Assembly: GCA_043818055.1 (NCBI GenBank)
Contig: JBDRGF010000159.1
Coordinates: forward strand, 17,623-81,622
DNA from: Pseudomonadota bacterium
GTDB lineage: Bacteria; UBA10199; 2-02-FULL-44-16; JBDRGF01
Direction: 5' to 3'
Length of the DNA stretch: 64,000 nt
Part shown: piece after piece, positions 2,599 through 44,142 of the stretch
Layout of the letters: every line of letters begins with the position of its first letter
Position numbering within the stretch: the stretch's first letter is position 1
The notes under the pieces: model-generated
Told to the model about the DNA's origin: nothing
Seen by the model: the letters and a program-made list of their open reading frames with translations, nothing else
The model's database searches: none
Program-made: the position numbers and the translations under genes

Positions 2599-3672
2599 TT
2601 AAAAAGCTTTATTCATATAACGCGAAAAAGTGGATGTTACTATATGAGCATATTTCAGATATTTAAGAGGTACCAACATTTTAAGCCTCGCTTTAGCAAT
2701 ATACAAAGGCATAGCATTAAACGCAATATTCAATTCAGAAACAGCATTATCATATAAAGTTGAACCTCTCAGAAAATCAAATCCCTTCTCAACCAAAAGA
2801 CGGTATTTCAGCATATCGTCCATAACTAACTTTTTATTATGCATTATGCTTCTTACAACAACAGCACATATAACCGATTTCAATATCGAAGATAAGTTTT
2901 TTTGGAAATCAACCTTCAGAGCATCCTTTGACAAAACCGTAATACTTTCTCGAATTAGATTTACCCCTGCTTCTTTAAACAATGCTACATCACTACTTGA
3001 GCATGTCCATGACTTTTCATGCATACGAGTCGAAACCAATGGAGCATCTATATAAACAACTTCAGGCAACAAACCAGTTTTAATTAAAAGTAAATCTTCT
3101 GTATATAAAGCTGTTGGCCCGCTTGATAGCCGTTGAACACCGCCAATACTTCTAAGATAATCTGTATTATAAAACCCACAACATCCCATCGCTTTTAACC
3201 CACCTGACAAATAAGCCCTTAGAAAAGCTCTCCCTGAAAACAACATGGCCCGTCCATCATTATATCTTTTGAACTTATGAACATGGGAACCATAAATACC
3301 AAAATATGATGTAAACACAGATATTGGGAAATCAAACTTAGTCAAAGCAGCACAAGACTCATTTAAAAAAGTTGGCGCACATGGGTCATCATCAAACTGC
3401 CATGTAAAATACTTACCATTAGCTCTGGTGAGCAAATAATTCATATTTTCCAACTCACCCATATTCCGTTTGTGATTGATAATTTTAACTCTTGGATCGT
3501 CAATTCCCAACATCTCGAGCGAAAGGGAATCGTCCACAAAATCATTTCCAACAATAACTTCAAAATCAGTAAAGGTTTGCGCTAAAATAGATGAAAGAGT
3601 TTGTTTCAATAAATCTTTTCTCCTATAAGTTGGAACACCTATTGAAAAAAAAGGCTGTCCTGTGATCGCCAT
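2599..3672 (-). CDS. Family 2 glycosyltransferase
   Basis: N-terminal FSIGVPTYRRKDLLKQTLSSILAQTFTDFEVIVGNDFVDD GT-A motif region. Confidence 0.75.
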   Translation of the reverse strand: MAITGQPFFSIGVPTYRRKDLLKQTLSSILAQTFTDFEVIVGNDFVDDSLSLEMLGIDDPRVKIINHKRNMGELENMNYLLTRANGKYFTWQFDDDPCAPTFLNESCAALTKFDFPISVFTSYFGIYGSHVHKFKRYNDGRAMLFSGRAFLRAYLSGGLKAMGCCGFYNTDYLRSIGGVQRLSSGPTALYTEDLLLIKTGLLPEVVYIDAPLVSTRMHEKSWTCSSSDVALFKEAGVNLIRESITVLSKDALKVDFQKNLSSILKSVICAVVVRSIMHNKKLVMDDMLKYRLLVEKGFDFLRGSTLYDNAVSELNIAFNAMPLYIAKARLKMLVPLKYLKYAHIVTSTFSRYMNKAF

Positions 3673-3695: not shown

Positions 3696-4565
3696 CTATG
3701 GTCTGTTTGCCGAAAACACGATATCCTTCAAATGCCGCAGTGTCATTAAAGAATATTTTTTGTCGCTTACGGTATAAAATTGACAGACAGCCCGCTTTAT
3801 GAGCCTAATATAGAATATGAAATTTTCCATTTTCGATCCATAAGATTTCATAAAAAGTGTTTCAGCTTTGAGAATATTTAAATATCTTTTTTCATTCATG
3901 AATTTATCATAGTTTCTTACGGAAAGCTCGTGTTCAACAATCGAATCCATTACATAAATCTTATTGCCTATTTTGTTGATAGAATAAAACATCCATCTAT
4001 CTAAGCAGTCCATCCAAAACACTTCATTAAATCCACCGATTTTTTGCAAAACGGGAACTCTGACAGTGCTTCCAGAACCGATGGCACAGGCGTTTTTAAA
4101 CATACAAATACCTCTGTGTCGCCTGTCTATCGCCCTGACTATCCCGCCAAACCAAATCCTTGTCGGAGAAAATATATTATTCTTAAAGCACATCTTTGGA
4201 ACAACGGCGGCAATCTCGTCATTATCACCAACCTTGGAAAGATTATCCATCAGGCTGACAATAAAATCATCCGGCAATGATGAATCTTGATCCAAAAGAA
4301 GCAACCAGTCGCAGAAAGCATTAACCGCTTTACTCAACGCGTAATTGTACGCAACTGCCAAGCCTTTGTTGGTGTTGTCATGAACATATTCGCATTTAAA
4401 TACTGTGAAATCCAGACTTTGTATTGATGGACTATTATCGTAGACAATAAAGTTTATTTTCTCAAATGATTGAGAATCTCTCATATAATTCTTCAACAGG
4501 GAAATATATGTTTTACTATTCTCAATTACACAATTATAAACCACTATAATGACCGTTAAACTCAT
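3696..4565 (-). CDS. Family 2 glycosyltransferase (rhamnosyltransferase-like)
   Basis: TVIIVVYNC...YDNSPS N-terminal GT2 signature and LLLLDQDS DxD region. 4-nt overlap with the upstream gene. Confidence 0.7.
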   Translation of the reverse strand: MSLTVIIVVYNCVIENSKTYISLLKNYMRDSQSFEKINFIVYDNSPSIQSLDFTVFKCEYVHDNTNKGLAVAYNYALSKAVNAFCDWLLLLDQDSSLPDDFIVSLMDNLSKVGDNDEIAAVVPKMCFKNNIFSPTRIWFGGIVRAIDRRHRGICMFKNACAIGSGSTVRVPVLQKIGGFNEVFWMDCLDRWMFYSINKIGNKIYVMDSIVEHELSVRNYDKFMNEKRYLNILKAETLFMKSYGSKMENFIFYIRLIKRAVCQFYTVSDKKYSLMTLRHLKDIVFSANRP

Positions 4566-6317: not shown

Positions 6318-7844
6318 CTATTCTCCGGCTAAGTTGGTTTGACTTTCGCAGACAAGCACAGGTCTGAAAAGTTGAATACGGACTCGAATTCCTAGTGAAG
6401 TTAGAGTATTATTAATTATTCCTACAAGTGATTCTCCGAGAAGACTTGGAACAAACGAGACTATTAATAAAACCGAAATTACACTACTGCCAAGAACAAC
6501 ACAAAGAAACATCATATTGGATGATGTTAGTTGCCGGACTGTTGTAACAATTGGTAAAATAGTTAGTAACAATAAACTACCGATTATAATTCCATGTGTG
6601 TATAGTTTAAAATAATCTTTCAATCTGAATCTGACGATTGATTTACTTAATTGTATCATTAAAATATAGCCAATTACGTTAGCTATATCAACCGCAATGG
6701 CCACGCCTTTCAAACCGAAAAATGTTCCCACCCAGCTAAATGATATGATTACGAGTGCAGTTATTGCCTTTCGCACGGCACTTGCATATACGGCACCGGT
6801 TGCACGCACAAGAGTATCGGAGATGGTTATAAATATTCTACAAACAATAGTGAGTAACAAAATGCGGAATGGCCAAATGGAAGCTGACCAGTTAGGACCC
6901 AATAAAGTGTAAATTATTTCGGGTGCAATTAGAAACATCAGCACAGTTAGCGGAATTAAAGCAGTACTTACAATGCTCGTAGAAGTAAAGTAAGCTTTTT
7001 CTAACCTTCCTGCTTGGCTTTGAACTTGAGACATTGCTGGAAAAAGAGCTTTGTCCAGGACAAGATTAAGATGCTGACCGGGCATCGACATAATTGAAGA
7101 CGCCCTGTCATAGAAGCCTAAAGATGTAGAACCTAAAAAATGACCAATAATGAAATAATCACCTTGTGAGGCAATGCTATCAAATACTCTTGTTAACGTC
7201 AGACCTCCACCATAAGTCAGAAGTTCTTTATACTCGCTGCCAATTATAAATGGCCTCAAGGAGCCTGGTCTTATAAACAATAAACACGCTGTTTGCAGAC
7301 AACATTGAGTTAATTTTCCCACAACAATTGCCCATGCCCCAGATCCATGCATTGCCATTAAAATACCAACTAGAGCATACCCAAACACATATGAACCAAC
7401 ATCAATCCACATTAGGATATCAAACCTCATCTCCCGCTCTATGCGAGAACGGGAAACAATGCCTATTTTGGTAATCAACGCCGAAACCGCAATCCATCTT
7501 ATTATACTTATAAGACTTTCAGCCTTAAAAAAGGTCGCAATTAGTGGTGCGCACAACCATAATATCAACACAAAGAAGGTACCCAATATTATCGATAGAA
7601 AAAAACCTGCCCTTATATGTTTTTCAGTTAATTCCTCTTTTTGAATTATTGCCGGGCCAATACCAGCATCGGCAAACATATCCACAAAAATCATCACCAT
7701 ATTGGCCATGGCTATGTAGCCGAATTCTCTGGGCAAAACATATCGCGCCAATACTGCTAATACCAATAATTGCAAGACACCCTTTGCGACAACAGCCACA
7801 AGTTGCCAGCTTCCCGCTTTTATGGTTCGGTGTGTTAGAGTCAT
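6318..7844 (-). CDS. wzx: Oligosaccharide/O-antigen flippase Wzx (MOP superfamily)
   Basis: 508 aa with about 12-14 hydrophobic helices and the typical N-terminal KGVLQLLVLAVLARYVLPREFG Wzx-like region. Set in a polysaccharide locus. Confidence 0.7.
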   Translation of the reverse strand: MTLTHRTIKAGSWQLVAVVAKGVLQLLVLAVLARYVLPREFGYIAMANMVMIFVDMFADAGIGPAIIQKEELTEKHIRAGFFLSIILGTFFVLILWLCAPLIATFFKAESLISIIRWIAVSALITKIGIVSRSRIEREMRFDILMWIDVGSYVFGYALVGILMAMHGSGAWAIVVGKLTQCCLQTACLLFIRPGSLRPFIIGSEYKELLTYGGGLTLTRVFDSIASQGDYFIIGHFLGSTSLGFYDRASSIMSMPGQHLNLVLDKALFPAMSQVQSQAGRLEKAYFTSTSIVSTALIPLTVLMFLIAPEIIYTLLGPNWSASIWPFRILLLTIVCRIFITISDTLVRATGAVYASAVRKAITALVIISFSWVGTFFGLKGVAIAVDIANVIGYILMIQLSKSIVRFRLKDYFKLYTHGIIIGSLLLLTILPIVTTVRQLTSSNMMFLCVVLGSSVISVLLIVSFVPSLLGESLVGIINNTLTSLGIRVRIQLFRPVLVCESQTNLAGE

Positions 7845-8776
7845 TATACCCGCATGTTCTTAATTAAACTAATCGTATCTGATATGCCGATATCCAGGTT
7901 GCCATTAAAAAGAAAATCCCTTGATTTAAACTTAGAGTTCGAAACATTATATGAAAGCTGGTTCATTATTTGAGAATCCACAAATTCAATCTTCAGATCA
8001 GAAACATGTTTCTTTATGATCTCTATAATATCATTCACAGTGGAATTGACTGTAACAATGTTATAAGTTTGTTTGTCAAACATGTTTCTTTTAATAACAA
8101 AATCTATAGCCCTAACTGCATCACCAAGATCAAGATATGGCCTCTTCTGGTACAATGCGGTCCGCCAAACGGTTATTGGCTGAGCAAGACATGCCTGCCA
8201 ACAGAACTTGTTAATCGCGGTATGAAAACGCATCCCCAAAGACGTACCGAAGATCGTGCCAAAACGTCCAACAAAGTACTTCAAACCATGCTCATCACCA
8301 AACTTTTTCAACATTTGTTCAGCACGAAGCTTGCTTGACGCGTATGGACTTTGTGGTTTTAATTCCTCGATCGAACAATTTTCATCAACGACCGCTTCTT
8401 GAGTTCCATAAACACTCGTTGTTGAAAAAAACATTATTTTACTCCCAGTCTCTAAACATGCCTTCGCAACACGTTCCGTCCCCTCATAATTAACCTTTTC
8501 AACCTGATCCTGAATATCGAAACTTCCTGCCGCATTTGTGATAGCCGCTAAGTGAATTACACAATCTATGCCATCACAATAATGCACCATATCAGCAGTA
8601 CAAACATCATCCTCCACAAACTTAAATGGCACTCCCTTGGAAAGGTTGAATAGAGAGCTGTAGCGCTGTGTCGATAAATTATCCAATAGAACAACTTTTT
8701 CAAACTCACCAGGTTTAATAGAGTGGATAAAACGAGATCCAATATGACCTAAAGCTCCTGTTATTAAAATTTTCAT
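7844..8776 (-). CDS. NAD-dependent epimerase/dehydratase (SDR family)
   Basis: MKILITGALGHIGSRF Rossmann GxxGxxG motif and YASSK catalytic YxxxK. Confidence 0.75.
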   Translation of the reverse strand: MKILITGALGHIGSRFIHSIKPGEFEKVVLLDNLSTQRYSSLFNLSKGVPFKFVEDDVCTADMVHYCDGIDCVIHLAAITNAAGSFDIQDQVEKVNYEGTERVAKACLETGSKIMFFSTTSVYGTQEAVVDENCSIEELKPQSPYASSKLRAEQMLKKFGDEHGLKYFVGRFGTIFGTSLGMRFHTAINKFCWQACLAQPITVWRTALYQKRPYLDLGDAVRAIDFVIKRNMFDKQTYNIVTVNSTVNDIIEIIKKHVSDLKIEFVDSQIMNQLSYNVSNSKFKSRDFLFNGNLDIGISDTISLIKNMRV

Positions 8777-8818
8777 TTTTCGTCCTTTGCTTGAGTTGTT
8801 TTCGTTTTACCTTATTTA

Positions 8819-9841
8819 CTAAACATATTCACTGAGGCAGTTTTTAAAATATGTTTTAGATTTCTGAAGACCTTCATCTAAACTATATTTTGGACACCAA
8901 TTCATAAATTCCTTGATTCTTTTGTTACTGATAACCGCATCCCCAAGCTCCATTGACTTGCGCTCCTTCGGCCAAGAGATATATTTCACACAACCACTAC
9001 CAATATTATGCACAGTCCTTTCTGCAATTTGTGCCACGCTATAATGATTATCGCCTACTGCAAAAAAAGTTTTACCATTCGAATCCTGTGATTCAGCAGC
9101 AGTAACCAGGGCGTCGACTGCATCCTCCACATAAAGAACATTTCGTAGCTGTTTTCCATCCCCATATACTGTGATATCCTTGTCTTGAAGTGATAAACCA
9201 ATAAAATAATTATTGAAAGTAAACTCTGGGCTATGGATAGACGCCCGGGGGCCAAATACATTAGCGAGTCTAACAACTGTTGCGCGTAAACCATAAGCAC
9301 GTGCGTATATTAGTACATATTTTTCTGAAACACTTTTATTGGCCGAATATATGTCGGTTGGAAATTCGGGATGATCTTCATCTGCAGGGTTGTAACGTAA
9401 CGGACCTAACTGAGTGCTTGTCCCAATGTGAACCAATTTTGCCTCCGAATTAAAACGTTTTATCGCCTCTATAAGATTTACGACGGCCCTGCTGTTTATA
9501 TCAAGGTCCAACCATGGTTCACGCATAGAAAAAGGATGCGACGTAGAAGCTGCGCAATTAAAAATTACGTCTTGACAACATACATGATCAGATAACAAAT
9601 CAAAATTCATGAGATCATGAAAATGCAGTTCAATAACGTCTTTAATATCTTTGACATTATAGAGATTACCTCCAGAGTGAGGGTCTAAGTTGTCATAGAT
9701 CGAAACTTTTGCTCCAAGCTCCACACAACGATGAGCAAGGTTACTGCCTATAAATCCCAATCCTCCAGTAATTAAAACCCTTTTACCTGCCATACCTGAC
9801 ACTGCACTTTTTTCGATCATATACACCTCATTGACTAACAA
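8819..9841 (-). CDS. NAD-dependent epimerase/dehydratase (SDR family); the true start is probably an internal Met
   Basis: VLITGGLGFIGSNLA motif and YSANK. The N-terminal ~20 aa of the track ORF are likely spurious. Confidence 0.7.
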   Translation of the reverse strand: MLVNEVYMIEKSAVSGMAGKRVLITGGLGFIGSNLAHRCVELGAKVSIYDNLDPHSGGNLYNVKDIKDVIELHFHDLMNFDLLSDHVCCQDVIFNCAASTSHPFSMREPWLDLDINSRAVVNLIEAIKRFNSEAKLVHIGTSTQLGPLRYNPADEDHPEFPTDIYSANKSVSEKYVLIYARAYGLRATVVRLANVFGPRASIHSPEFTFNNYFIGLSLQDKDITVYGDGKQLRNVLYVEDAVDALVTAAESQDSNGKTFFAVGDNHYSVAQIAERTVHNIGSGCVKYISWPKERKSMELGDAVISNKRIKEFMNWCPKYSLDEGLQKSKTYFKNCLSEYV

Positions 9842-9859
9842 ATTGAACTGTCGATTTGT

Positions 9860-10846
9860 TTAGCAATAAACATCTATCATTAGATCTATTCCATCTTTAA
9901 GAGAAACTTTTGCTCGCCAACTTGTAGCCTCAGTAAAACAATCAGTCTTGGCAACAAAATTACGCTCTTCTATGGGTGAAAGATTACTCGGAGGATCAAT
10001 ATGAGTAACTTTAATCTCTTTACCAGTTTTGAGTCTTGCTCGTTCCGCAACCAGATTCACAGCATCGGCAATAGTATATGCATCACCACTACCAATAACA
10101 AAATGCCGACCGTTGGCCATATCAATATTCGAAGCAGCGCTCAAGAAAGCAAATACAACGTCGTCCACATAGACATAATCTCTAATAAACTTTCCATCTC
10201 CATAAATAGTTAGTTCTTCACCTTGCAATGCCTTACGCACCATCATATTCAATACACCTCTGTCGGCACTACTACTGCGTGGGCCAGGGCCATAGACATT
10301 TGCTAGTCGTAAAATTGAGCCAAAAACAACCCCCCTATTAATATAGTGTTTTAAATACTTTTCAGACATCAACTTATGCATGTCATAGACTGTAATTGGA
10401 TTGTCTGGGTAGTTCTCATCAATTGGAATATGCTGTGTCAAACCAACCTCGGTCGCAGTTCCTGAAAAAATAATGATAGGTTTATATTGATTTTGACGAC
10501 ACGTTTCCAACAAATTCAACATTGGCATAACATTAATATTTAGGTCGGATCTTGGATCATTTTCTGCAACATAAACACTGGTTTGTGCGGCAAAATGAAA
10601 AACTATATCCACACCTTTTAATATCTGTTTCCAGGTTGTGCTATCACAAATATTCGCACAAACATCTTCAATTTGTGCAACTCCAGCGACCTGTTGAAAT
10701 GATATACCCGGTTTATCCAATCTAATTATATAGCAATCCAAGTTCCGCAATGAACTAATCACATTAGTTGCTAAGTAGCCAGCACCACCAGTTATCAAAA
10801 TTCTTTTGTTCTTGAAGAAATTCATCTGATTGAAACTGTGAACCAA
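9860..10846 (-). CDS. NAD-dependent epimerase/dehydratase (SDR family)
   Basis: ILITGGAGYLATNV motif and YDMHKLMSEKY YxxxK region. Confidence 0.75.
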   Translation of the reverse strand: MVHSFNQMNFFKNKRILITGGAGYLATNVISSLRNLDCYIIRLDKPGISFQQVAGVAQIEDVCANICDSTTWKQILKGVDIVFHFAAQTSVYVAENDPRSDLNINVMPMLNLLETCRQNQYKPIIIFSGTATEVGLTQHIPIDENYPDNPITVYDMHKLMSEKYLKHYINRGVVFGSILRLANVYGPGPRSSSADRGVLNMMVRKALQGEELTIYGDGKFIRDYVYVDDVVFAFLSAASNIDMANGRHFVIGSGDAYTIADAVNLVAERARLKTGKEIKVTHIDPPSNLSPIEERNFVAKTDCFTEATSWRAKVSLKDGIDLMIDVYC

Positions 10847-11277
10847 TCATAAACATCGTGTAATTTATCACAGGAAATACGAATTTCCTCCTGCAAATCA
10901 TATGTACCCGATGTAACATAAATCACGTTTGCTGGTCCCCCAATACATTGATAGCCATGCAAGACTCCAGGTGGAAATGAATACACCCTCGTATTTTGAT
11001 TATCTCCAACCAAAAATTCCATCTTTTCCCTATATGTTTGGGAGTCAGGGCGATTATCACATAACACCACTTTTAATAGTCCGTTAACAACATAATTCCA
11101 CTGCGTCTGTTTTTTATGTGCATGCCAAGCCTTTACAACTGCAGGATAAACAAGAGAGTGGCTAAGTTGACCAAAGCCATCTTTAAAAAATCCATCAGTC
11201 ACACGAATGATCTCACGAAAAAAGCCACGATCATCGGCATGCGTCACCAACTCCTTAAATTCAACTCCACTTATCAT
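10822..11277 (-). CDS. Cupin-fold NDP-4-keto-6-deoxyhexose 3,5-epimerase / ketoisomerase (RmlC-like)
   Basis: 151 aa with ELVTHADDRGFFREI...WHAHKKQTQWNYVVNGLLKVVLCDNR, which is RmlC-family-like. A second paralog of the bona fide rfbC at 37328. Confidence 0.6.
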   Translation of the reverse strand: MISGVEFKELVTHADDRGFFREIIRVTDGFFKDGFGQLSHSLVYPAVVKAWHAHKKQTQWNYVVNGLLKVVLCDNRPDSQTYREKMEFLVGDNQNTRVYSFPPGVLHGYQCIGGPANVIYVTSGTYDLQEEIRISCDKLHDVYDWFTVSIR

Positions 11278-12377
11278 TTTTTCTCCATAAACCTTTGAAT
11301 CACGGCTGCAACTGTCGCTAGTTCCGATGTCTTCAATTCGGGATACATCGGCAATGAAAGAACTTCATTTGCAATTTTTTCAGTATTCACAAGCTCGTCT
11401 GAACCCTTTAAACGCTTCAAATAGGCTGGCTGAAGATGTACTGGTACTGGGTAATGTACCAACGAGCCGACTCCATTATCCTTGAGATATTGCTGTAATT
11501 TATCACGTTCAGAAGATCTTATAACATATAAGTGATATACATGAGTGGATTCTTCGCGTTTCTTTGGTAAAATAATATTATGATTTACTAATAACTGATC
11601 GTATTTAGATGCCAACATTGATCTAAGTTCATTATCTTTATCTAGTGTACGTAATTTTATTCTTAGTATTGCAGCCTGCAATTCATCTAGTCTTGAATTC
11701 CAGCCTGATATTTTACTAACATAACGGTCAGCCCATCCATATTCACGCAACAATTTTGCTTTTTGCGCTATCTCTCCATCATTGGTGACCAACATACCAC
11801 CATCACCTAATGCACCTAAATTTTTGGTGGGATAGAAACTAAAACAAGCAGCATCGCCCCATGAACCAACTCGTCGCCCATGACACATCGCCCCAGTTGC
11901 CTGAGCACAATCTTCGATAACCTTCAATTTATTAGCGCGTGCTACGTCAATTATAGAGATCATGTCAACAGGCAAACCATAGAGATGAACAGGAATAATC
12001 GCTTTAGTTTTTGTACTAATCGCCTTTTCAATTTTCAATGGATCCAAAACATAAAATTTTGGATCAATATCAACTAAAACTGGTGTTGCGCCCGCAAGTT
12101 CGATAGCGGCTATTGTTGCAACAGCAGTATGAGCAACAGTAATAACTTCATGACCTGGCCCAATACCACATGCCCTTAAAGCAACGTGTAAAGCTTCAGT
12201 TCCGCTGCCAACCCCAACCCCAAACTTTACTCCAACATAATTAGAGAATTCTGATTCGAATAATTTGCATTCCTCTCCAGATATATACCATCCCTTCTCC
12301 AAAACATTAGAGATTGCAGAGACAATTTCATCCTTGTGTGATAAATATTGTATTTTAGGATTACTGCAGTGTATCAT
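11274..12377 (-). CDS. DegT/DnrJ/EryC1/StrS-family PLP-dependent sugar aminotransferase
   Basis: Strong family resemblance throughout, including EESTHVYHLYVIRSSERDKLQQYLKDNGVGSLVHYPVPVHLQPAY. 4-nt overlap coupling with its neighbours. Confidence 0.85.
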   Translation of the reverse strand: MIHCSNPKIQYLSHKDEIVSAISNVLEKGWYISGEECKLFESEFSNYVGVKFGVGVGSGTEALHVALRACGIGPGHEVITVAHTAVATIAAIELAGATPVLVDIDPKFYVLDPLKIEKAISTKTKAIIPVHLYGLPVDMISIIDVARANKLKVIEDCAQATGAMCHGRRVGSWGDAACFSFYPTKNLGALGDGGMLVTNDGEIAQKAKLLREYGWADRYVSKISGWNSRLDELQAAILRIKLRTLDKDNELRSMLASKYDQLLVNHNIILPKKREESTHVYHLYVIRSSERDKLQQYLKDNGVGSLVHYPVPVHLQPAYLKRLKGSDELVNTEKIANEVLSLPMYPELKTSELATVAAVIQRFMEKK

Positions 12378-13597
12378 TTAAGCACCTTTACTGTTGGAAC
12401 GTGGACAATCCATTTACCACCTGTTGATTTATAATCTTGTTCTTTAGCCATAATCTCTTCTGAATGGTTCCATGCAAAAAGAAAAGCATAATTCGGATAT
12501 TTTGTCTTAAATTCCTGATAACTTTTTACTGGTATATGCATTCCAGGACTAAACCTACCCTGCTTAATTGGCGTTGTATCACATATATATTCAATTAGTT
12601 CAGAACCTATCCCACAATAATTGAGAATTGTTGTACTCTTCGAAGTAGCGGCATATCCAACAACACGGTCCCCATCTCTTTTGAATTCGACCAAAAGTCT
12701 CTTCAACGACTCCTTTGACTGCTCACAATTTTTTCTAAACTTATCATATGTGTCCGGCAGATGTAACCCAAGGTCATGTTCTTTTTTTAGTTGTTCGCCT
12801 ACTCTCTTGGAAATTGGCTTTGTACCCTTATGAGCTATAACATAACGCATGGAACCACCATGAGTCGACTGAGGCTCCACATCAATAACCTCCATACCAT
12901 GTTCATTAAAAACATAACTGATGGAAGAAACAGAAAAAAGAAAAACATGTTCATCATATATTTGGTCATAAGATGTCTTTTCAATAACATCACCAAGATA
13001 TGGATCCTCGAACATCGCAACCCCATCATCTTTTAATAAAATGTTAATTCCCTCTGCTATAGAGTGGAAATAAGGTATGTGACACATGACATTTGCGGCC
13101 AAATAGGCATCTGCTTTACCATATTTATCAACGATCTTCCTTGCCAATTTCTCATCGAAAAATTCTGATATCGTATTGATACCACTATCCATAGCAACCT
13201 TAGCAACATTAGATGAAGGTTCAATTCCTAGATGCCGGATCTTTCGAGCCGCAAAGTTTTTGAGCATAATTCCATCATTACTACCTACTTCAACAACAAA
13301 CGGATCATTTGATTTTATGTAATCTTTAAGGGCATGATCGGCGAACTCAGCAAAATGGGCTATCATTCCTTTGGAAGTTTGGGAAAAGAAGGCATAGTTC
13401 TCATGAAACATCTTCTCACGATCAGGCTGATCAATAAGCTGTACCATTTTGCAGTGTGGACAAAAAGCGACCTTCATCTCAAAAAAATACTCTTCTGCAA
13501 ATCTATCCTTCGTCAGAAAACCATTAGCTATGGGCATCTTTCCAAAATCTATAAACGGCTCGATGTGAGTATTACAAATCAAACATTTTTTCATCAC
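12374..13597 (-). CDS. NDP-hexose C-methyltransferase (TylC3/Methyltransf_13-14 type, with N-terminal Zn-ribbon)
   Basis: N-terminal CLICNTHIEPF...CPHCKMVQL zinc-binding motif, then a class I MTase domain and the C-methyltransferase C-terminal domain. Confidence 0.7.
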   Translation of the reverse strand: MMKKCLICNTHIEPFIDFGKMPIANGFLTKDRFAEEYFFEMKVAFCPHCKMVQLIDQPDREKMFHENYAFFSQTSKGMIAHFAEFADHALKDYIKSNDPFVVEVGSNDGIMLKNFAARKIRHLGIEPSSNVAKVAMDSGINTISEFFDEKLARKIVDKYGKADAYLAANVMCHIPYFHSIAEGINILLKDDGVAMFEDPYLGDVIEKTSYDQIYDEHVFLFSVSSISYVFNEHGMEVIDVEPQSTHGGSMRYVIAHKGTKPISKRVGEQLKKEHDLGLHLPDTYDKFRKNCEQSKESLKRLLVEFKRDGDRVVGYAATSKSTTILNYCGIGSELIEYICDTTPIKQGRFSPGMHIPVKSYQEFKTKYPNYAFLFAWNHSEEIMAKEQDYKSTGGKWIVHVPTVKVLK

Positions 13598-13647: not shown

Positions 13648-15249
13648 CTACCGTTTTTCTAAAGAAAAATAACTAACCGACTTCTCATCCTTTGGGAAAT
13701 CTCTCGGCAAATCAATATCTATTAAATTATACTTGTAAGCTTCGGCCCTTGGGTAAAAAGATGCCTTGGAAAACTGGACCGTCCTGTTTGAATATACATA
13801 TTTTCTAAACACACCACGTACAATAGGAGCTAAATCACCGCGAATATAAAAAATATTCGTCTTTCCTTTTACATTAATATCATTTTTGTCGATTATTTCT
13901 TTTAATGCATCCATGGCACCGCTGCTATATTGAATGTCATTATTTTGTTTTCCCCGTTCACCAAAAGAATTCAAGAGAGACATCGTATTTCCAAACAACG
14001 ATCCATAAAACAAATAATGAGATGCAACAAAAGCTGTCGCGGTCATTCCGATCATAGAAACACTCATATAAACATGCCGTTTAACTGCGCTCTTGTCTGG
14101 CAAAATAGCAAAGACAAAAACCGGCAAAATAACAAACCAGGCTGAACCGTAATAGAATCTCCAAACAATTTGATAATGAGTTATAATAGCGGCGACTATG
14201 AATGTTAACGGGATAACGGGAACTAAAAAAAACAGTATCGACGAAATCAATTGTGACTTAAACAGATTTTGATTTATTATTATGCTCCGTTTCTTTGAAA
14301 TCCATAGCGTAAAAAGACCCGCTAAGAGTGAAAATATGGCAATCTCGCTAAAGGCCTTTGGAAATGCGTTGAGCTCCATTACAAGCCTGCCTAAGCCTAC
14401 ACTTTTAACTTTATCGACATATAAAACATATGTGGCATAAAAATCAGTAAAAAGTGATGGTACAGGTATACTCTTTGTCAGGATAATAATTACAAAACAA
14501 ATCGAAAGAAATGATATTGCAAACACAAAGGGCCAACGATAAGCGATAATAATATTATGTACATAGGACCTACAGAAGCAAACCATCACCATCAACGAAA
14601 TTAAATAAAACAATGCTTCAGTAGGATGTATAATTAGAAGCAAAGGCAATATGAGAACGATCTGGGAAAGTGCAACTATTTTTTGCCTTCTAATCGAACA
14701 TTTATCGAACAATATGTGCATGGACAAAGCGGAAATATACCAATACAGCGGGATCGTTAAACCCTGATAGGTGATCGAATACCATAAGATCCAAGCTCGT
14801 TGATCATACTCAGCACTACCATTTCCTATAAACCAGAGAATTATAGAAAATATGATAAGCATCTGCCGCTCGACATTTTTAATATTTGGCAGGGCTAATT
14901 TTACAAAAGTTGAACTGAAAAAAGCGATACAGACGTAAGATAATATTGATTGAGAAACATGGATGATCTTTGCCCATACGAAAATGTCATTTATATGAAT
15001 AAATTTAAAGAAATATCCCCATACAAGGTGCCAAAGATACATTGAACGACGCACATCTTCTGGCCAAAAGATGAAGCTTTTACCATTGTCATAAAAACTC
15101 GTAATCACCGTGAGGTGTTCCCACATGTCAAATGGTAATTTCAGGAATGGATGCGAAAATATAATAGCTGCGATCACCATGACCGAGAATACAGCAATAT
15201 ACGAATTGTCTAAAATTTTATTCTTGATCGTCATAATATTCCAAAACAC
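13648..15249 (-). CDS. Large polytopic membrane protein, possible GT-C-type glycosyltransferase/polymerase
   Basis: 533 aa with more than 12 predicted hydrophobic helices. I see no recognisable soluble domain. Confidence 0.45.
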   Translation of the reverse strand: MFWNIMTIKNKILDNSYIAVFSVMVIAAIIFSHPFLKLPFDMWEHLTVITSFYDNGKSFIFWPEDVRRSMYLWHLVWGYFFKFIHINDIFVWAKIIHVSQSILSYVCIAFFSSTFVKLALPNIKNVERQMLIIFSIILWFIGNGSAEYDQRAWILWYSITYQGLTIPLYWYISALSMHILFDKCSIRRQKIVALSQIVLILPLLLIIHPTEALFYLISLMVMVCFCRSYVHNIIIAYRWPFVFAISFLSICFVIIILTKSIPVPSLFTDFYATYVLYVDKVKSVGLGRLVMELNAFPKAFSEIAIFSLLAGLFTLWISKKRSIIINQNLFKSQLISSILFFLVPVIPLTFIVAAIITHYQIVWRFYYGSAWFVILPVFVFAILPDKSAVKRHVYMSVSMIGMTATAFVASHYLFYGSLFGNTMSLLNSFGERGKQNNDIQYSSGAMDALKEIIDKNDINVKGKTNIFYIRGDLAPIVRGVFRKYVYSNRTVQFSKASFYPRAEAYKYNLIDIDLPRDFPKDEKSVSYFSLEKR

Positions 15250-16924: not shown

Positions 16925-18412
16925 TTACTGTCCTCTTCCAAGTTGTCCCATAAAATATTTTGAGAAAAAAACCCTTGCGGATTTCAGACTCCTATAGCCT
17001 TCCGATGGGTCTTTAATGGCCTGTTTTAGCTTCATAAACATATATGCAAACCTTAAATGATATTTTTTTAAATAGTCATCACAAAGAGATACCATCTCTT
17101 CTGATTTGAGACTAGCAGTATTAATCACACAATTGTGTAATCCATCGTTTGTCAACCATTGTGAAAAATCTTCTGTTTTGAGATATCCATGCTCCTTTGC
17201 CCATGAATATGCTTCTGTTCCGGGATAGACGTAGAGCGGATAAAACTGCATACTGTCGCAGTTTATCTTTTTGGAGAACTCATAGCTCTTCATCAGAGTT
17301 GTCTTGGTATCTCCGGGATTGCCAACCATTATGCAACCATGTACCAGAACACCGGCCTTCCTCGCGCTGTCAGCAAATTTATAATAAACTTCAACCCTCT
17401 CACCTTTGCACATCTTGTCAAGAATCTGTTGACATCCGCTCTCAAAACCAACTGTAACGAGACGACAACCCGCGCTCTTCATCAATTTCAAAAGATCATA
17501 ATCAAGATCACCGCGCACATTGCAATACCACTTTATTTTTATTCCGCGGCCAATAATTAACTCACATATCTTTTTCACCCTTTTACGATCTGCGCTGAAA
17601 CAATCATCCTCTATACCGATCTCTTTTACATCTGGAAAGTTCCTGACAATATATTCAAATTCATCGACAACATTCTCCGGAGAACGCGTTCTGTAGGATC
17701 TTGCATGGAATACTTGCGGATAAACACAAAAAAAGCACTTAAACGGACAACCCCTGCCCGTAATTATCATCATCATGGGATAATTAGCTGCCGCAAAAAA
17801 ATATTTACGGCAGTTAAGATGCTTTTTATATACCGATGAGACAAAGGGAATATTGTCAAGGTCCTTGATTTTCTCCCTTTCCTTATTGCGAACTATCACC
17901 CCGTCTTTTCTAAAGACCAAGCCGTCAACCTCACCAATGTCATTCTTGTTCATTATGACGCCTGCAAGGTCACGGATCGTGTAATCATATTCGCCGATGG
18001 CAACGGCATCGACCTTCGTGCTTAAGTTCACCGTCTGTTCGGGAAGTGCGGAGGGATGTGTCCCGACCATTACAATGAACGAGGCAGGATATTGATCTTT
18101 GATGGTCCCTGCAATATGAACATCACTGAATATGCTCGGTGTGCTTGTATCGATAACCGCAATTTCAGGGACGAAACCGTCTAACGAGTTAAAGACCCCT
18201 TCGATATCAAGTCCAAGGGCCGGCGCATCTATCAGCCTGACGTTATGACCAGCCTGTTCGGCAACAGCCGTCGCATAGGCAAGCCACAAGGGGTAGTATA
18301 GCGTTCCCCCCTTACAAACCGCGGGGCTGCGCGAGGTCCGTGAAAACTGATCAAGAAACGGAGGATTGAGAAATAATATGTTCATTGAATTGATTTGATG
18401 CGTTAGATCCAT
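16925..18412 (-). CDS. B12-binding domain radical SAM enzyme
   Basis: GRGCPFKCFFC CxxxCxxC after an N-terminal B12-binding-like domain. 495 aa. Confidence 0.8.
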   Translation of the reverse strand: MDLTHQINSMNILFLNPPFLDQFSRTSRSPAVCKGGTLYYPLWLAYATAVAEQAGHNVRLIDAPALGLDIEGVFNSLDGFVPEIAVIDTSTPSIFSDVHIAGTIKDQYPASFIVMVGTHPSALPEQTVNLSTKVDAVAIGEYDYTIRDLAGVIMNKNDIGEVDGLVFRKDGVIVRNKEREKIKDLDNIPFVSSVYKKHLNCRKYFFAAANYPMMMIITGRGCPFKCFFCVYPQVFHARSYRTRSPENVVDEFEYIVRNFPDVKEIGIEDDCFSADRKRVKKICELIIGRGIKIKWYCNVRGDLDYDLLKLMKSAGCRLVTVGFESGCQQILDKMCKGERVEVYYKFADSARKAGVLVHGCIMVGNPGDTKTTLMKSYEFSKKINCDSMQFYPLYVYPGTEAYSWAKEHGYLKTEDFSQWLTNDGLHNCVINTASLKSEEMVSLCDDYLKKYHLRFAYMFMKLKQAIKDPSEGYRSLKSARVFFSKYFMGQLGRGQ

Positions 18413-19079: not shown

Positions 19080-19670
19080 TTATCTTATTATGTATTCTAC
19101 TCTGCCGACGATCATGTCATTGATACAATGAAGAAGCAAATTATGAATGATCTCAACATAACCATAGGCCTTGGAGTTGATCCAAAAATTTATTGAACCC
19201 AATGCACTCAAAGGATTTTTTTGATCGAACCCTGAAAATGTGATCACGGTCATATTTTTTTTCAATGCCTCTTCACAGGCGTTCAAAATGTTCTTAGACG
19301 AGCCACTACTGCTGATAGCTATCAAAACATCACCCTTACAACCGTAGTGTTCAACGCCCTTTTGAAACATCCTTTCATATCCATAATCATTAGCATATGC
19401 CGTCATCATCGGAGACCCGCTGATCGTCATAGCCCTTAAACCAGCATTTTTCGTCAAATCGACAGACATGTGTTCAGCTATTGCCGCCGAAGCGCCATTT
19501 CCTATCAATATTATCTTAGCCCCCCTATTCTTCGTGGCAATAAGACACTTTGTGGCATCAATCAACTTAGCCTTGTTGTTCTTTTTTCCGATATGGGCTT
19601 CAACAATACTGTTAAAGTCACAAAAAAACTCATCCAAAAAACTATTATAAAACTCGTTCGTCTCATTCAT
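19080..19670 (-). CDS. gmhA: SIS-domain sedoheptulose-7-phosphate isomerase
   Basis: KIILIGNGASAAIAEHMSVDL...DVLIAISSSGSSKNIL, the SIS fold typical of GmhA. 196 aa. Confidence 0.75.
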   Translation of the reverse strand: MNETNEFYNSFLDEFFCDFNSIVEAHIGKKNNKAKLIDATKCLIATKNRGAKIILIGNGASAAIAEHMSVDLTKNAGLRAMTISGSPMMTAYANDYGYERMFQKGVEHYGCKGDVLIAISSSGSSKNILNACEEALKKNMTVITFSGFDQKNPLSALGSINFWINSKAYGYVEIIHNLLLHCINDMIVGRVEYIIR

Positions 19671-19706: not shown

Positions 19707-21008
19707 TCACTGACAATTGCCATGAAGCTCTGGATACAAGGTTTTATTGTTATTTTTCTCATATTCAGCCAAAATCTGTCTGAATTCGGGAATGGTCATA
19801 CTTCCTTTCTTCTCAAGTGCAGGATAATAAAAATTCATAAAATCCGGATCATCTGCCAAAAAGCAGGCGTGATATCCTCCAAATGGAGTTTCTTTCAGAC
19901 CTCTTTCCCGTGCAACAGACAGTGGCTCCTTCATAACATTTCCCATGTAAACATGCATGTTAGCACAATTCATGACATCACCGTAGGGGGTCATATTTAT
20001 CATTTCTTTCGTCCCGGGACATCCGAACTGCTTCCCGTAATTGAAGTTCAGATGCCTGGTAACCCAGTTGTATGGTTTTATAATTTTCTCGTAATTTTTG
20101 ACATCTTCCTTGTCGAGCATAACCTCCTTGTTATGGAAATTGCCTACTCCTTTGGCAAATAGTGTGCACAGAAGCACCTGTTCCCGTTCCGCAAGCTCCA
20201 ACAACTCCCTGAAACCATCTGTATAGAGATTACCTTTGTGAACGCAGCAATTAATAACAACTTTAATACCATATTTTTTACTCAACCTGATATTTTCAAC
20301 AACCTTTTCAAAGCTCCCAGCCTTTTTTCTGAAGGCATTATGAATTTCAGGATAACCGCTGTCGAGACTATAATTGATCGTATCAACACCCAACTCGTAA
20401 GCTCTTTTGATCTTTGCTTCGTCAACAAGATAACCATTGGTGGTAATAATAATATGATTCTTCATCGGTTGCCATGCCCTGATAAACTCCTCCCAGTTTT
20501 TTACAACAAAAGGCTCTCCGCCTTCCATGCCAAACGTAGTGGCACCAAGCTTCATCGCCTCTTTCACAACTCTCGCATAATCGGAAGGTTTCATCTCCTG
20601 TCTCTTCCCCGACTCATCAATCCTTGCACAAAGACAATGATTGCAACTAAAGTTACATCTAAAGCTAACTGCAAACTCTATCCCTCTTAGAATATATTTT
20701 TTCATTCCCAGGTAGTGATAAACTTTCCCTCGGATCTCATTCCAAATAATCCTGAAGGGATAGAATGGCTTTCTCCAATGGATCCCATATTTAAAACGAA
20801 TGCGCCATAACGTAAGGAATTTTTTAATTGGATTGTATTGCCGTGTAATTATTACCCGTTTGCGTTTTGTCTGTTCTTCGGCTTCTTTCAATTTTTTCAT
20901 TATACGTCTGGACTCTTCCTGTGTTTTGGCAATCAGCTTAACATCGTCTTCAAGCGTACTAAATACCGACACCTTGTTTTGTGACGCAAATACACTACTC
21001 TCAAGCAT
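19707..21008 (-). CDS. Radical SAM enzyme with auxiliary-cluster-like C-terminus and ~100-aa N-terminal charged/coiled extension
   Basis: FRCNFSCNHC CxxxCxxC and GGEPF. C-terminal Cys cluster CPGTKEMINMTPYGDVMNC. The N-terminal extension may be an artefact of an upstream start. Confidence 0.7.
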   Translation of the reverse strand: MLESSVFASQNKVSVFSTLEDDVKLIAKTQEESRRIMKKLKEAEEQTKRKRVIITRQYNPIKKFLTLWRIRFKYGIHWRKPFYPFRIIWNEIRGKVYHYLGMKKYILRGIEFAVSFRCNFSCNHCLCARIDESGKRQEMKPSDYARVVKEAMKLGATTFGMEGGEPFVVKNWEEFIRAWQPMKNHIIITTNGYLVDEAKIKRAYELGVDTINYSLDSGYPEIHNAFRKKAGSFEKVVENIRLSKKYGIKVVINCCVHKGNLYTDGFRELLELAEREQVLLCTLFAKGVGNFHNKEVMLDKEDVKNYEKIIKPYNWVTRHLNFNYGKQFGCPGTKEMINMTPYGDVMNCANMHVYMGNVMKEPLSVARERGLKETPFGGYHACFLADDPDFMNFYYPALEKKGSMTIPEFRQILAEYEKNNNKTLYPELHGNCQ

Positions 21009-21082: not shown

Positions 21083-22078
21083 TCATAACAAACCCTCTTT
21101 TCTAAGATTTTCAACTGTTTTGCTAATCGACTTTCTCCAATTGGTAATAGCGTACCCCAACTCTTTTATGGCCAATTCCGAAGAATAAAAAAGATTCTGC
21201 CGAATCATCTCTCCTACTATTTTAGTAATCGGTGTTTCTTTCTTCAGCAAATTAAAGATCAACTCAGCACCATACCCAAGCCAGGGCAGTATAAATCTCG
21301 GCAGTGGAATTTTAGGCGAAATTCCTCCGGTGGCATAGGCTATATCGCTAAAATATTCTTTAAAAGATATATTATCCCCACCTAAGATATATTTTTTTCC
21401 AGTAATACCCTTTTCATAGCATAGGAAAAGACCTCTTACTAAGTCATCTATATCTGTAAGGCAGACCCCGCCTGAAGGATATATTTTCATCTTACCTTGA
21501 GCAATAGCCTTAAAATTATCTAACTGAGTTCTCTTGATACCGTGCGATCCTATCACATTTCCGGGACAAACGATGATCGAGTCTAACCCCAAGCCAACCT
21601 CTCTAAGGACGGCCTGTTCTCCCAGATATTTTGTATAAGCGTAGGGATCTCTGTAGTTGTTAAAAACAAATTTTTCATCGGCCACTTCTCCATGTTCAGG
21701 GACACCTACAGCCGACACCGAACTGATATGGATCAGACGCAATCCTCCTTTTTCTCTGGTCATTCTCGCAACATTGCTGGCAACTGCAATGTTAATGATC
21801 TCCCTTAAACGTTGATCTCTTTTCAATGAAGAGCCACACGCGGCAAAATTATAAACAGCAACACACCCCTCCATGGCTTTAGCCAGCGCCATATTGTCAG
21901 TTAAATCTCCTTCAAAAGGAGTAAAAGAAAAACCGGTTAGGTTCTTCATTGAAGATGATTTCCGATGGAAGACAACAACCTCTACATCCTTTTCCTGTAA
22001 ATATCTGACTAAATTACTGCCAATAAATCCTGTCCCACCTATAAGTAGAATCCTATTATTATTTGTTTTTCTACCCAT
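21083..22078 (-). CDS. NAD-dependent epimerase/dehydratase (SDR family)
   Basis: ILLIGGTGFIGSNLVRYL and YAYTKYLGE YxxxK. Confidence 0.75.
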   Translation of the reverse strand: MGRKTNNNRILLIGGTGFIGSNLVRYLQEKDVEVVVFHRKSSSMKNLTGFSFTPFEGDLTDNMALAKAMEGCVAVYNFAACGSSLKRDQRLREIINIAVASNVARMTREKGGLRLIHISSVSAVGVPEHGEVADEKFVFNNYRDPYAYTKYLGEQAVLREVGLGLDSIIVCPGNVIGSHGIKRTQLDNFKAIAQGKMKIYPSGGVCLTDIDDLVRGLFLCYEKGITGKKYILGGDNISFKEYFSDIAYATGGISPKIPLPRFILPWLGYGAELIFNLLKKETPITKIVGEMIRQNLFYSSELAIKELGYAITNWRKSISKTVENLRKEGLL

Positions 22079-34216: not shown

Positions 34217-34585
34217 CTATTTTTGGATATTTCCGTCTCTGCTGTTAAGCGTTGATAATTCACTTTCGAATATAGCTAGCTGTTGAATAAGCCGTCTGAT
34301 CTGACGTCTCTGGGAAGTGATAACAATCGAAAACTGCAAGCACATCAATAATACGACTATCAGCCCCAGAAAAAAAAGCGTATTTGCCGGAGCAACCACT
34401 CCAATCAAATGCGTCAAATAAATAAGCCATTCATATTTTACTACGATCAGTGTTGTTACGACACCTATCGCCAACCATAACCAGCAATAAGCCACATCCA
34501 GACGCCCTTTTTGAATCAATCTTATGATTAATAGCAATAAAGAAAGTGCAACGAACAAAAATACAATTACCTGATGTAAAGACAT
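34217..34585 (-). CDS. DUF2304-like small membrane protein
   Basis: 122 aa, 3-4 TM segments, located directly after a GtrB-like GT2. Confidence 0.5.
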   Translation of the reverse strand: MSLHQVIVFLFVALSLLLLIIRLIQKGRLDVAYCWLWLAIGVVTTLIVVKYEWLIYLTHLIGVVAPANTLFFLGLIVVLLMCLQFSIVITSQRRQIRRLIQQLAIFESELSTLNSRDGNIQK

Positions 34586-34610
34586 TAATCGCTCCTTTAC
34601 AAAATTTTAA

Positions 34611-43479: not shown

Positions 43480-43503
43480 TTTTTAATAGATAGTGGTCAG
43501 TCT

Positions 43504-43971: not shown

Positions 43972-44009
43972 TATCTCACCCTCCCCCTGTTTATCATTTT
44001 TATTTTGTG

Positions 44010-44135: not shown

Positions 44136-44142
44136 ATAGATT

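Follow-up and report, generated by a model that had tools for sequence, protein, structure and literature searches.

A conserved six-gene cassette in a bacterial surface-glycan locus that probably makes a C-methyl-branched amino sugar

Introduction

To our knowledge, amino sugars with a C-methyl branch have been reported almost exclusively from actinomycete antibiotics (vancosamine, kijanose and tetronitrose). In the synthesis of deoxythymidine diphosphate (dTDP)-L-epivancosamine for chloroeremomycin, EvaB is the C-3 aminotransferase, EvaC the C-3 methyltransferase, EvaD the RmlC-like 5-epimerase and EvaE a short-chain dehydrogenase/reductase (SDR) that acts as 4-ketoreductase. Here we describe a cassette of six genes, encoding a C-methyltransferase, a DegT aminotransferase, an RmlC-like cupin and three extended SDRs (SDR-C, SDR-B and SDR-A), on a 64,000-nucleotide stretch of a Pseudomonadota bacterium metagenome-assembled genome (MAG; GTDB lineage Bacteria; UBA10199; 2-02-FULL-44-16; JBDRGF01), namely positions 17,623 to 81,622 of the forward strand of contig JBDRGF010000159.1 in assembly GCA_043818055.1; this whole stretch is referred to as the window. 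The cassette probably makes a C-methyl-branched amino sugar for a surface glycan.

In the kijanose pathway, the C-3 aminotransferase KijD2 and then KijD1 work on a 3,4-diketo sugar that comes from the 2,3-dehydratase KijB1, and KijD7 acts at C-4 afterwards (PMC10951976). For virenose (6-deoxy-3-C-methylgulose) of Coxiella burnetii lipopolysaccharide (LPS), the TylCIII-like protein CBU_0691 has been proposed in silico (PMC3539893), and beyond that proposal no further literature precedent was found for a TylC3-type methyltransferase in a surface glycan. In Campylobacter jejuni, the C4-dehydrogenase Cj1427 depends on NAD and binds NADH tightly, with alpha-ketoglutarate serving to recycle it; its 4-keto product passes to a cupin epimerase and then to a C4-reductase (PMC10680097). 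No literature was found on a characterised version of the present cassette or on its product.

Results

The six co-directional open reading frames (ORFs) occupy positions 7844-13597 on the minus strand of the window and are transcribed in the order methyltransferase, aminotransferase, cupin, SDR-C, SDR-B, SDR-A (Table 1). A first-pass annotation of the sequence had read the same set there (three SDRs, a cupin, a DegT enzyme and a Zn-ribbon C-methyltransferase), and Pfam agrees with it. ATGA stop/start overlaps are found at the methyltransferase/aminotransferase, aminotransferase/cupin and cupin/SDR-C junctions, SDR-B and SDR-A are each preceded by a gap of ~40 nt with a Shine-Dalgarno sequence, and the SDR-A stop shares 1 nt with the start of the following Wzx-type flippase gene (junction TAATG). 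The six genes are a single translationally coupled operon, and the Wzx gene puts it in a surface-glycan export setting. The methyltransferase ORF reaches 13597 and its start is ATG 13594, with AGGAG 7 nt upstream and 100% identity to the NCBI MAG protein; the SDR-B start at 9820 is supported by a 100%-identical NCBI protein, and that of SDR-C is probably ATG 10825, overlapping the cupin stop, not TTG 10846. No NCBIfam model is matched above its curated cut-off by any of the six proteins, the methyltransferase having no match whatever, and the source annotations of SDR-A and SDR-B are generic ('UDP-glucose 4-epimerase', 'GDP-mannose 4,6-dehydratase', 'SDR family oxidoreductase').

The methyltransferase was searched against one genome per GTDB species, resulting in 554 relatives, and the best 80 loci (60-72% identity) were analysed by BLAST of the main window ORF proteins against the ORFs of these loci (orthologue defined by at least 60% coverage). 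Orthologues were found for the methyltransferase in 79 loci, the aminotransferase in 65 (at least 40% identity), the cupin in 43, SDR-C in 38, SDR-B in 54 and SDR-A in 56 (always at 50% identity or more). Gene order (methyltransferase-aminotransferase-cupin-C-B-A) and orientation in related loci match the window, often with two family 2 glycosyltransferase (GT2) genes, GT2y-GT2x, next. Outside the six proteins, the recurring window gene is one glycosyltransferase (GT2x, 20 of the 80 loci); the rml genes, radical S-adenosylmethionine (SAM) genes and other methyltransferase genes of the window show essentially no recurrence across the 80 loci. Carriers include Elusimicrobiota, Planctomycetota (including Scalindua), Nitrospirota, Desulfobacterota, Bacteroidota, Acidobacteriota, Chloroflexota, Omnitrophota and Bdellovibrionota, together with the archaeon Ca. 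Methanoperedens. A cultured carrier is Geobacter sp. AOG2 (L081; GCA_019972295.1, BLJA01000001.1 3017867-3039087), where the order is Wzx-methyltransferase-cupin-C-B-aminotransferase-A-GT2 and a B12 radical SAM gene adjoins. The six-gene grouping is far beyond chance and is linked by cross-phylum synteny; the cassette is horizontally mobile and widely conserved. Relatives of the methyltransferase number at least 7,996 proteins at E<=1e-50 (90%-clustered database) and 3,178 clusters at E<=1e-30 (50%-clustered library), many of the homologues bearing the JGI name 'methylation protein EvaC'. Sugars of this kind had been described in the first pass as typical of antibiotics rather than of cell-surface glycans, which is misleading genomically, since thousands of the homologues lie in environmental loci with Wzx, ATP-binding cassette (ABC) transporter and glycosyltransferase genes.

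Several related loci differ around the methyltransferase gene. A protein of ~390 aa directly follows it in L006, L021 and L025; the L021 copy has weak radical SAM/SPASM similarity, and the L006 and L025 copies are one sequence family. A similar weak radical SAM/SPASM match lies just upstream of the gene in L013 and L029, a gap of ~1.1-1.4 kb occupies the position after it in L011, L013 and L029, and the aminotransferase (~43% identity) is placed after GT2x in L011, L013, L021 and L029.

The methyltransferase combines a Zn-binding domain (PF08421, 3.4e-18), a class I SAM domain (PF13489) and a C-methyltransferase C-terminal domain (PF08484, Methyltransf_14, 1.3e-55). Its residues 4-406 align without gaps with residues 14-416 of PDB 5t64 (403 residues, 45.4% identity, 1e-124), deposited as 'sugar 3-C-methyl transferase' and which we take to be KijD1; further matches are TcaB9 (3ndi, 3e-116) and D-mycarose 3-C-methyltransferase (4rv9, 2e-75). 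Cys5/8/46/49 align with the four Zn-binding Cys of 5t64, and the segments 'MCHIPY' and 'QIYDEH' are kept. By these E-values the two amino-sugar enzymes, 5t64 and TcaB9, are closer to it than 4rv9, which acts in D-mycarose synthesis. The earlier reading of this protein as a sugar C-methyltransferase is therefore upheld, as it is a full-length homologue of solved sugar 3-C-methyltransferases and not of a non-sugar enzyme, and synteny across phyla ties the SDRs and the cupin to it and to the aminotransferase instead of to unrelated pathways.

The aminotransferase has an SFYPTK motif with the pyridoxal phosphate-binding Lys185, kept in 56 of 57 orthologues. Its PDB matches are 7b0d (1e-119), QdtB (2e-101), 2oga (5e-92), 5u1z (6e-89) and WbpE (6e-75), 2oga being DesV and 5u1z KijD2; against C-4 enzymes the values are 2e-60 (perosamine synthase), 4e-53 (ArnB), 5e-37 (WecE) and 2e-28 (PseC). 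Nothing usable was found in the literature on PDB 7b0d, 7b0m or 7n63. On such scores the enzyme falls with the C-3 aminotransferases (QdtB, DesV, WbpE) and is a putative member of that group. The same scores count against a distinctly unlikely scheme for a 4-amino-3-C-methyl (kansosamine-like) sugar, in which C-3 of dTDP-4-keto-6-deoxyglucose would be methylated with the 3-OH kept, as by TylC3, the cupin would then epimerise, the aminotransferase would aminate C-4 and the SDRs would adjust stereochemistry elsewhere. That scheme requires no 3-keto-forming enzyme, which would explain the absence of a dehydratase and an isomerase described below; rmlB is in the window, and the regiospecificity of DegT enzymes is not certain from sequence. 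Against it, the E-values are 15 to 40 orders better for C-3 than for C-4 enzymes, the variant loci described below add a separate, clearly C-4-type aminotransferase, their FdtA-like isomerases fit C-3 amination only, and the three conserved SDRs would be left without a role.

The first-pass annotation regarded the six genes plus rfbB (a 4,6-dehydratase gene) as what is needed to turn a nucleoside diphosphate (NDP)-4-keto-6-deoxyhexose into a C-methyl amino sugar. This was inaccurate, as the set has no 2,3-dehydratase, no FdtA/QdtA/Tyl1a ketoisomerase and no SDR that is a dehydratase. Known pathways to 3-amino-3-C-methyl sugars depend on a 2,3-dehydratase (KijB1/EvaA; PMC10951976), and those to 3-amino sugars on a ketoisomerase of the FdtA/QdtA/Tyl1a kind. 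No 2,3-dehydratase domain (EvaA/KijB1) was detected in the 38 window ORFs scanned (1-47.7 kb), and no conserved family of ~470 aa accompanies the cassette in the 80 loci; a hidden 2,3-dehydratase was rejected because it is absent from both the scanned ORFs and the cassette-recurring families. At the positions of the RmlB Asp-Glu pair, SDR-A has T-S (57/57), SDR-B S-T (50-53 of 55) and SDR-C V/A-T, and the RmlB equivalog model TIGR01181 gives SDR-A, SDR-B and SDR-C 99, 136 and 92 bits, respectively, vs a cut-off of 365. With no acidic dyad in any family and scores far below the cut-off, the SDRs were rejected as 4,6-dehydratases. YxxxK is kept in all three families, as is an Asp that closes beta-2 and points to NAD rather than NADP. 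Since dehydratase and isomerase signatures are absent, the module cannot work like EvaA-E and the Kij enzymes or like QdtA/QdtB.

The cupin matches PF00908 (56.2 bits vs a cut-off of 27) and scores 39.2 bits with the RmlC equivalog TIGR01221, below its cut-off of 155.75, so that it is not dTDP-4-dehydrorhamnose 3,5-epimerase proper. Because the genuine rmlC, rmlA, rmlB and rmlD of the window all pass their NCBIfam equivalog cut-offs, the cupin is truly a second RmlC-like protein beside rfbC, as noted in the first pass. A family profile (41 sequences) matches RmlC (1e-18), NovW, EvaD (1ofn, 3e-10), WbcA, ChmJ and Campylobacter heptose epimerases, with no FdtA/QdtA structure at E<0.01; no PF05523 match was obtained for the cupin, and a hidden Markov model (HMM) built from FdtA-like proteins of related loci has no match in the window. 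Family profile and HMM both being negative, membership of the FdtA/QdtA family was rejected, which settles on the RmlC side the choice between these two subfamilies that the first pass had raised. RmlC relies on His63 and Tyr133 for catalysis, with Lys73 and Asp170 in supporting roles. The equivalents of His63, His120 and Tyr133 are invariant in the 41 sequences, as is the motif W-H-x-H-K-x-Q; the Lys73 equivalent is lacking, and the protein ends before the Asp170 region. Given these resemblances, the cupin probably epimerises a 4-keto sugar at C-5 (or at C-3 and C-5).

Co-occurrence was analysed in the 56 loci with at least 7 kb downstream, using Fisher tests that ignore phylogenetic relatedness. 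FdtA-like small cupins (RG-x-H-A-H-K motif) occur in 5 of these loci, SDR-B in 47 and both in none (p=3e-5), and the RmlC-like cupin is missing from 18. Among the 49 loci with a C-3-type aminotransferase, SDR-B or FdtA is present in 47 and the RmlC-like cupin or FdtA in 38. This difference in coverage makes SDR-B, not the cupin, the best candidate for the 3-keto step, and SDR-B probably forms the keto group, likely a 3-keto group, that the aminotransferase requires. The solved neighbours nearest to SDR-B (dTDP-glucose 4,6-dehydratases, 4-epimerases, UXS, Pal and CDP-tyvelose 2-epimerase) are not decisive, and its profile and Foldseek searches return generic extended-SDR neighbours only.

The same counts bear on a quite improbable division of labour in which the cupin, not SDR-B, would be the missing 3,4-ketoisomerase, working with an FdtA-like His-x-His, and the SDRs would be an oxidase/reductase pair around C-4. 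The invariant cupin motif does resemble the RG-x-H-A-H-K of FdtA-like proteins, two members of the cupin family weakly match the FdtA-like HMM (~8e-4), and the loss of RmlC Lys73 and of the Asp170 region is in its favour. It is opposed by 11 of the 49 C-3-type aminotransferase loci, which have neither the cupin nor an FdtA-like protein, by locus L068, which has both, by the invariant equivalent of the RmlC acid Tyr133, and by the failure of the family profile to retrieve FdtA/QdtA at the threshold given above.

SDR-C is present in 31 of the 47 SDR-B-containing loci and a PglD-like N-acetyltransferase (PglD_N and Hexapep domains) in 11 others, with no overlap (p=2.5e-7). All 16 SDR-C-less loci have a second aminotransferase, the acetyltransferase or both, and the nearest relatives of that extra aminotransferase are 7b0m and the C-4 enzyme perosamine synthase. 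Because it alternates with these genes, SDR-C is probably the terminal C-4 ketoreductase, the other fate of the 4-ketone being C-4 amination and N-acetylation in the manner of KijD7. The variant in which an aminotransferase of this kind and the acetyltransferase take the place of SDR-C (L004, L015, L043, L050, L054, L058 and L074) often has further methyltransferases, a CmcI-type family among them, and its predicted product is a 3,4-diamino C-methyl sugar that is N-acetylated.

SDR-A is found in 51 of the 56 loci, among them those of FdtA type and the minimal locus L060. The best PDB match of its family profile is Cj1427 (6vo6/6vo8, 8e-32; next best 2e-28), and Cj1427 also ranks first in a Foldseek search with the AlphaFold2 model of SDR-A (mean predicted local distance difference test score, pLDDT, 90), at a template modelling (TM) score of 0.86 and 26% identity, with C4-epimerases marginally behind. 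From these similarities we infer that SDR-A, the constant partner of the methyltransferase, may be an NAD-dependent C-4 dehydrogenase (or C-4 oxidoreductase) handling the 4-keto group.

This partnership is central to an unlikely alternative, that two or more sugars are made. The methyltransferase and SDR-A would give a non-aminated 3-C-methyl-6-deoxyhexose by methylation and 4-ketoreduction (virenose- or mycarose-like), and a second sugar, aminated or epimerised, would come from the aminotransferase, the cupin and the other two SDRs; the genes would travel together because both sugars are part of one conserved glycan unit. In its favour, L060 holds only the methyltransferase, SDR-A, GT2y and GT2x, and no aminotransferase lies within range of the methyltransferase and SDR genes of L072, L079 and L028; the cassette is followed by two GT2 genes, and a TylC3-type enzyme figures in the proposal for virenose, an LPS sugar that carries no amino group (PMC3539893). 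A single product is favoured by the methyltransferase and aminotransferase genes, which are adjacent and ATGA-overlapping in the window and in most loci, and by the resemblance of the enzyme pair to the consecutive pair of kijanose and tetronitrose synthesis; a separate amino-sugar pathway would, moreover, still want a recognisable source of keto substrate.

For the single C-methyl-branched amino sugar, the following steps are proposed. RmlA and RmlB, or another source, would supply an NDP-hexose, most likely dTDP-linked. SDR-B would make the 3-keto group, replacing the 2,3-dehydratase of antibiotic pathways and the FdtA/QdtA isomerase of 3-amino-3,6-dideoxyglucose (Qui3N) and 3-amino-3,6-dideoxygalactose (Fuc3N) synthesis, and the DegT aminotransferase would transaminate C-3. 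SDR-A would supply or restore the C-4 ketone, the methyltransferase would methylate C-3 through a 3,4-enolate, and the cupin would epimerise C-5, a step that appears optional because many loci lack the cupin. SDR-C would then reduce the C-4 ketone, GT2y and GT2x would transfer the sugar, and Wzx would export the glycan unit. The predicted product is an NDP-3-amino-3-C-methyl-(6-deoxy)hexose with its 2-hydroxyl kept, since without a 2,3-dehydratase (KijB1) the 2-OH should be retained. What we infer from these data is the nucleotide carrier, the carbon on which each SDR works, the sequence of the reactions and the sugar that results.

As a whole, the scheme set out here, from a nucleotide-activated hexose to a surface-glycan amino sugar with a methyl branch at C-3, is, in our judgement, evenly poised, and the specific assignment of enzyme roles is offered tentatively, as somewhat less than an even prospect. 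A new route, in which NAD-dependent SDRs create the 3-keto and 4-keto groups with neither a 2,3-dehydratase nor a cupin ketoisomerase taking part, the 2-OH is retained and the sugar, unreported in any glycan, is widespread, is possible though on balance doubtful; SDR-B would in that case either dehydrogenate C-3 or be a 3,4-ketoisomerase of SDR type, with SDR-A as a Cj1427-like C-4 dehydrogenase. Several points weigh against these assignments. The methyltransferase family also holds C-5 methyltransferases (NovU), and the aminotransferase could still act at C-4. Homology places the SDRs only among extended SDRs, most of whose solved neighbours begin with C-4 oxidation; the SDR-B sequence has no feature pointing to C-3, and its AlphaFold2 model is poor exactly at the active site. 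L072, L079 and L028 have SDR-B, SDR-C and SDR-A with no aminotransferase within reach, so that SDR-B is not strictly tied to amination, and L060 is reduced to methyltransferase-A-GT2y-GT2x. The FdtA-type loci number just five in the sample, under tests uncorrected for phylogeny. With a canonical 4,6-dehydratase encoded close by in only 2 of 80 loci, the sugar might be neither 6-deoxy nor carried on dTDP.

Genomic context

The module lies inside a ~40-kb glycan cluster that is all on the minus strand and has a GC content of ~37% vs ~46% in the flank (Table 1). No polyketide synthase or nonribosomal peptide synthetase genes are present and the context is Wzx, GT2 and rml, for which reason an antibiotic gene cluster was rejected.

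Table 1. Positions of the cassette genes and of other features in the window.
Feature	Position	Strand	Matches and remarks
C-methyltransferase (TcaB9/KijD1/EvaC type)	12374-13594	minus	PF08421, PF13489, PF08484; 406 aa
DegT nucleotide-sugar aminotransferase	11274-12377	minus	PF01041 2.4e-117; 367 aa
Short RmlC-like cupin	10822-11277	minus	PF00908 dTDP_sugar_isom 4.6e-15; 151 aa
SDR-C, GalE-like extended SDR	9860-10825 (ORF to 10846)	minus	PF01370 5e-48
SDR-B, RmlB/GalE-like extended SDR	8819-9820 (ORF to 9841)	minus	PF01370 3e-42; 333 aa
SDR-A, extended SDR	7844-8776	minus	PF01370 2e-37
Wzx-type MOP flippase	6318-7844	minus	PF13440 2.5e-72
GT2y	3696-4565	minus	PF00535; weak TIGR01556 rhamnosyltransferase match (61 bits, below cut-off)
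GT2x	2599-3672	minus	PF00535; orthologues in 20 loci
rmlB	35389-36459	minus	NCBIfam equivalog passed
rmlD		minus	NCBIfam equivalog passed
rmlC	37328-37885	minus	NCBIfam equivalog passed
rmlA	37893-38795	minus	NCBIfam equivalog passed
B12-binding radical SAM enzyme	1152-2585	minus	
B12-binding radical SAM enzyme	16925-18412	minus	Hopanoid HpnJ model, 391 bits vs cut-off 577.6
B12-binding radical SAM enzyme	22892-24265	minus	
B12-binding radical SAM enzyme	26513-27964	minus	
Radical SAM/SPASM enzyme	24271-25407	minus	
Radical SAM/SPASM enzyme	25410-26498	minus	
Radical SAM/SPASM enzyme	27957-28967	minus	
Radical SAM enzyme	19707-21008	minus	
SDR	21083-22078	minus	HpnA model, 197 bits vs cut-off 368
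GmhA-like	19080-19670	minus	Below NCBIfam cut-off
HddA-like	31909-32877	minus	Below NCBIfam cut-off
HddC-GmhB fusion	32879-34213	minus	Below NCBIfam cut-off
GT2 and DUF2304 small membrane protein	34217-35363	minus	GT2 like polyprenyl-phosphate sugar synthases (PpgS/AglJ-like, below cut-off)
Polytopic membrane protein	13648-15249	minus	533 aa
tRNA-Lys(CTT)	52767-52840	minus	
HATPase_c_4 fragment, Pol-beta-type nucleotidyltransferase, AlbA_2/Schlafen-domain protein	41939-46626	minus	

The rml genes are the likely source of dTDP-glucose and dTDP-4-keto-6-deoxyglucose, and lie 22 kb from the module, outside the conserved cassette. The partnership with rfbB proposed in the first pass holds in part: rmlA and rmlB are in the window and are a plausible substrate supply, but a canonical RmlB is encoded within 10 kb of the cassette in only 2 of the 80 loci, rmlA and rmlB abutting it only in L004 and L027. 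A dTDP carrier is favoured because dTDP-sugar enzymes are the closest relatives of both the methyltransferase and the aminotransferase, because of these two abutting loci, and because GT2y weakly resembles rhamnosyltransferases. GT2y and GT2x are candidate transferases for the product, since they directly follow SDR-A in other genomes (order A-GT2y-GT2x in L003, L060 and L072).

The GmhA-, HddA- and HddC/GmhB-like genes point to a pathway in the cluster for activating an NDP-heptose-like sugar or a related sugar phosphate. Together with Cj1427 as the nearest solved relative of SDR-A, these genes would fit a modification of heptose by the SDRs and the cupin, as by the GDP-heptose C4-dehydrogenase, epimerase and C4-reductase of Campylobacter, which we nevertheless consider very improbable: all the heptose genes score below NCBIfam cut-offs, and it is to dTDP-sugar enzymes that the methyltransferase and the aminotransferase are related. 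A heptose module was rejected as the leading explanation because heptose genes co-occur with the cassette in 2-3 of the 80 loci.

The glycan locus is unusually rich in methylation and radical chemistry. It has four B12-binding radical SAM enzymes, three radical SAM/SPASM enzymes, one further radical SAM enzyme and at least three more class I methyltransferases (window 1152-28967). By their model matches, the products of the second of the B12-binding radical SAM genes in Table 1 and of the additional SDR gene appear to be hopanoid-like tailoring enzymes within the glycan cluster. The GT2 gene paired with that of a DUF2304 small membrane protein resembles the GacI/GacJ pair and suggests that a lipid-phosphate carrier delivers one sugar for extracytoplasmic transfer. 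The gene immediately upstream of that for the C-methyltransferase encodes a 533-aa polytopic membrane protein with no Pfam or NCBIfam match and no relative in the 80 loci, a possible polymerase or GT-C-type transferase.

A tRNA-Lys(CTT) gene is located where the GC content drops from ~46% (52-64 kb) to ~37-40% (1-50 kb), a step consistent with a horizontally exchanged glycan island beside a tRNA gene. Between dxs and the mannose-1-phosphate guanylyltransferase gene, the sugar genes are interrupted by a segment with a HATPase_c_4 fragment, a Pol-beta-type nucleotidyltransferase and an AlbA_2/Schlafen-domain protein, which looks like an inserted defence or mobile segment.

Discussion

The cassette places antibiotic-type aminotransferase and C-methyltransferase chemistry in a compact, mobile surface-glycan operon found in a dozen phyla. 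If the product were confirmed, it would be a new monosaccharide class for prokaryotic surface glycans, the extended SDRs would have a novel regiochemistry, and enzymes would be at hand for branched amino sugars without 2-deoxygenation. Should the new route be true, the sugar would be widespread on the surfaces of some archaea as well as of uncultured bacteria, and loci with SDR-C replaced would make an N-acetylated 3,4-diamino form of it. The substitution patterns yield testable role assignments, and Geobacter sp. AOG2 is a practical cultured organism for sugar analysis.

Compared with described systems, the core appears to be like the Eva/Kij/Tca branched amino sugar pathways, with the oxidise-epimerise-reduce logic of Cj1427/Cj1430/Cj1428 around it. 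As in dTDP-D-kijanose and D-tetronitrose synthesis, a C-3 aminotransferase and a C-3 C-methyltransferase would act consecutively beside a C-4 ketone, and variant cassettes add a C-4 aminotransferase, as the kijanose pathway does with KijD7. Unlike those pathways, the cassette has no KijB1 2,3-dehydratase and no N-oxygenase and carries three extra NAD-type SDRs, and it sits among Wzx and GT2 genes in the surface-glycan locus of a low-GC MAG, whereas they belong to an actinomycete polyketide cluster. Its gene classes match four of the five EvaA-E proteins (EvaB, EvaC, EvaD and EvaE); it differs in having no EvaA, in the conserved extras SDR-A and SDR-B, and in a truncated cupin without the RmlC Lys73/Asp170 equivalents.

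Among surface-glycan pathways, those of dTDP-Qui3NAc and dTDP-Fuc3NAc (O-antigens and S-layers) likewise have a C-3-type DegT aminotransferase in a surface-glycan locus, and a minority of the related loci carry an FdtA-like isomerase as they do; the window, by contrast, has no FdtA/QdtA protein and adds the C-methyltransferase and three SDRs. For the use of a TylC3-family methyltransferase in a surface glycan, virenose offers a precedent, although that sugar is non-aminated and no equivalent of the six-gene cassette has been described for it. With C. jejuni Cj1427/Cj1430/Cj1428 the cassette shares SDR oxidation at C-4 without dehydration, epimerisation by an RmlC-like cupin and C-4 reduction by a second SDR, but that pathway acts on GDP-heptose with no amination and no C-methylation, and SDR-A is just 26% identical to Cj1427. 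The cassette is thus of neither the Eva/Kij nor the Cj1427 pathway type, because the 2,3-dehydratase of the one and the GDP-heptose context of the other are absent.

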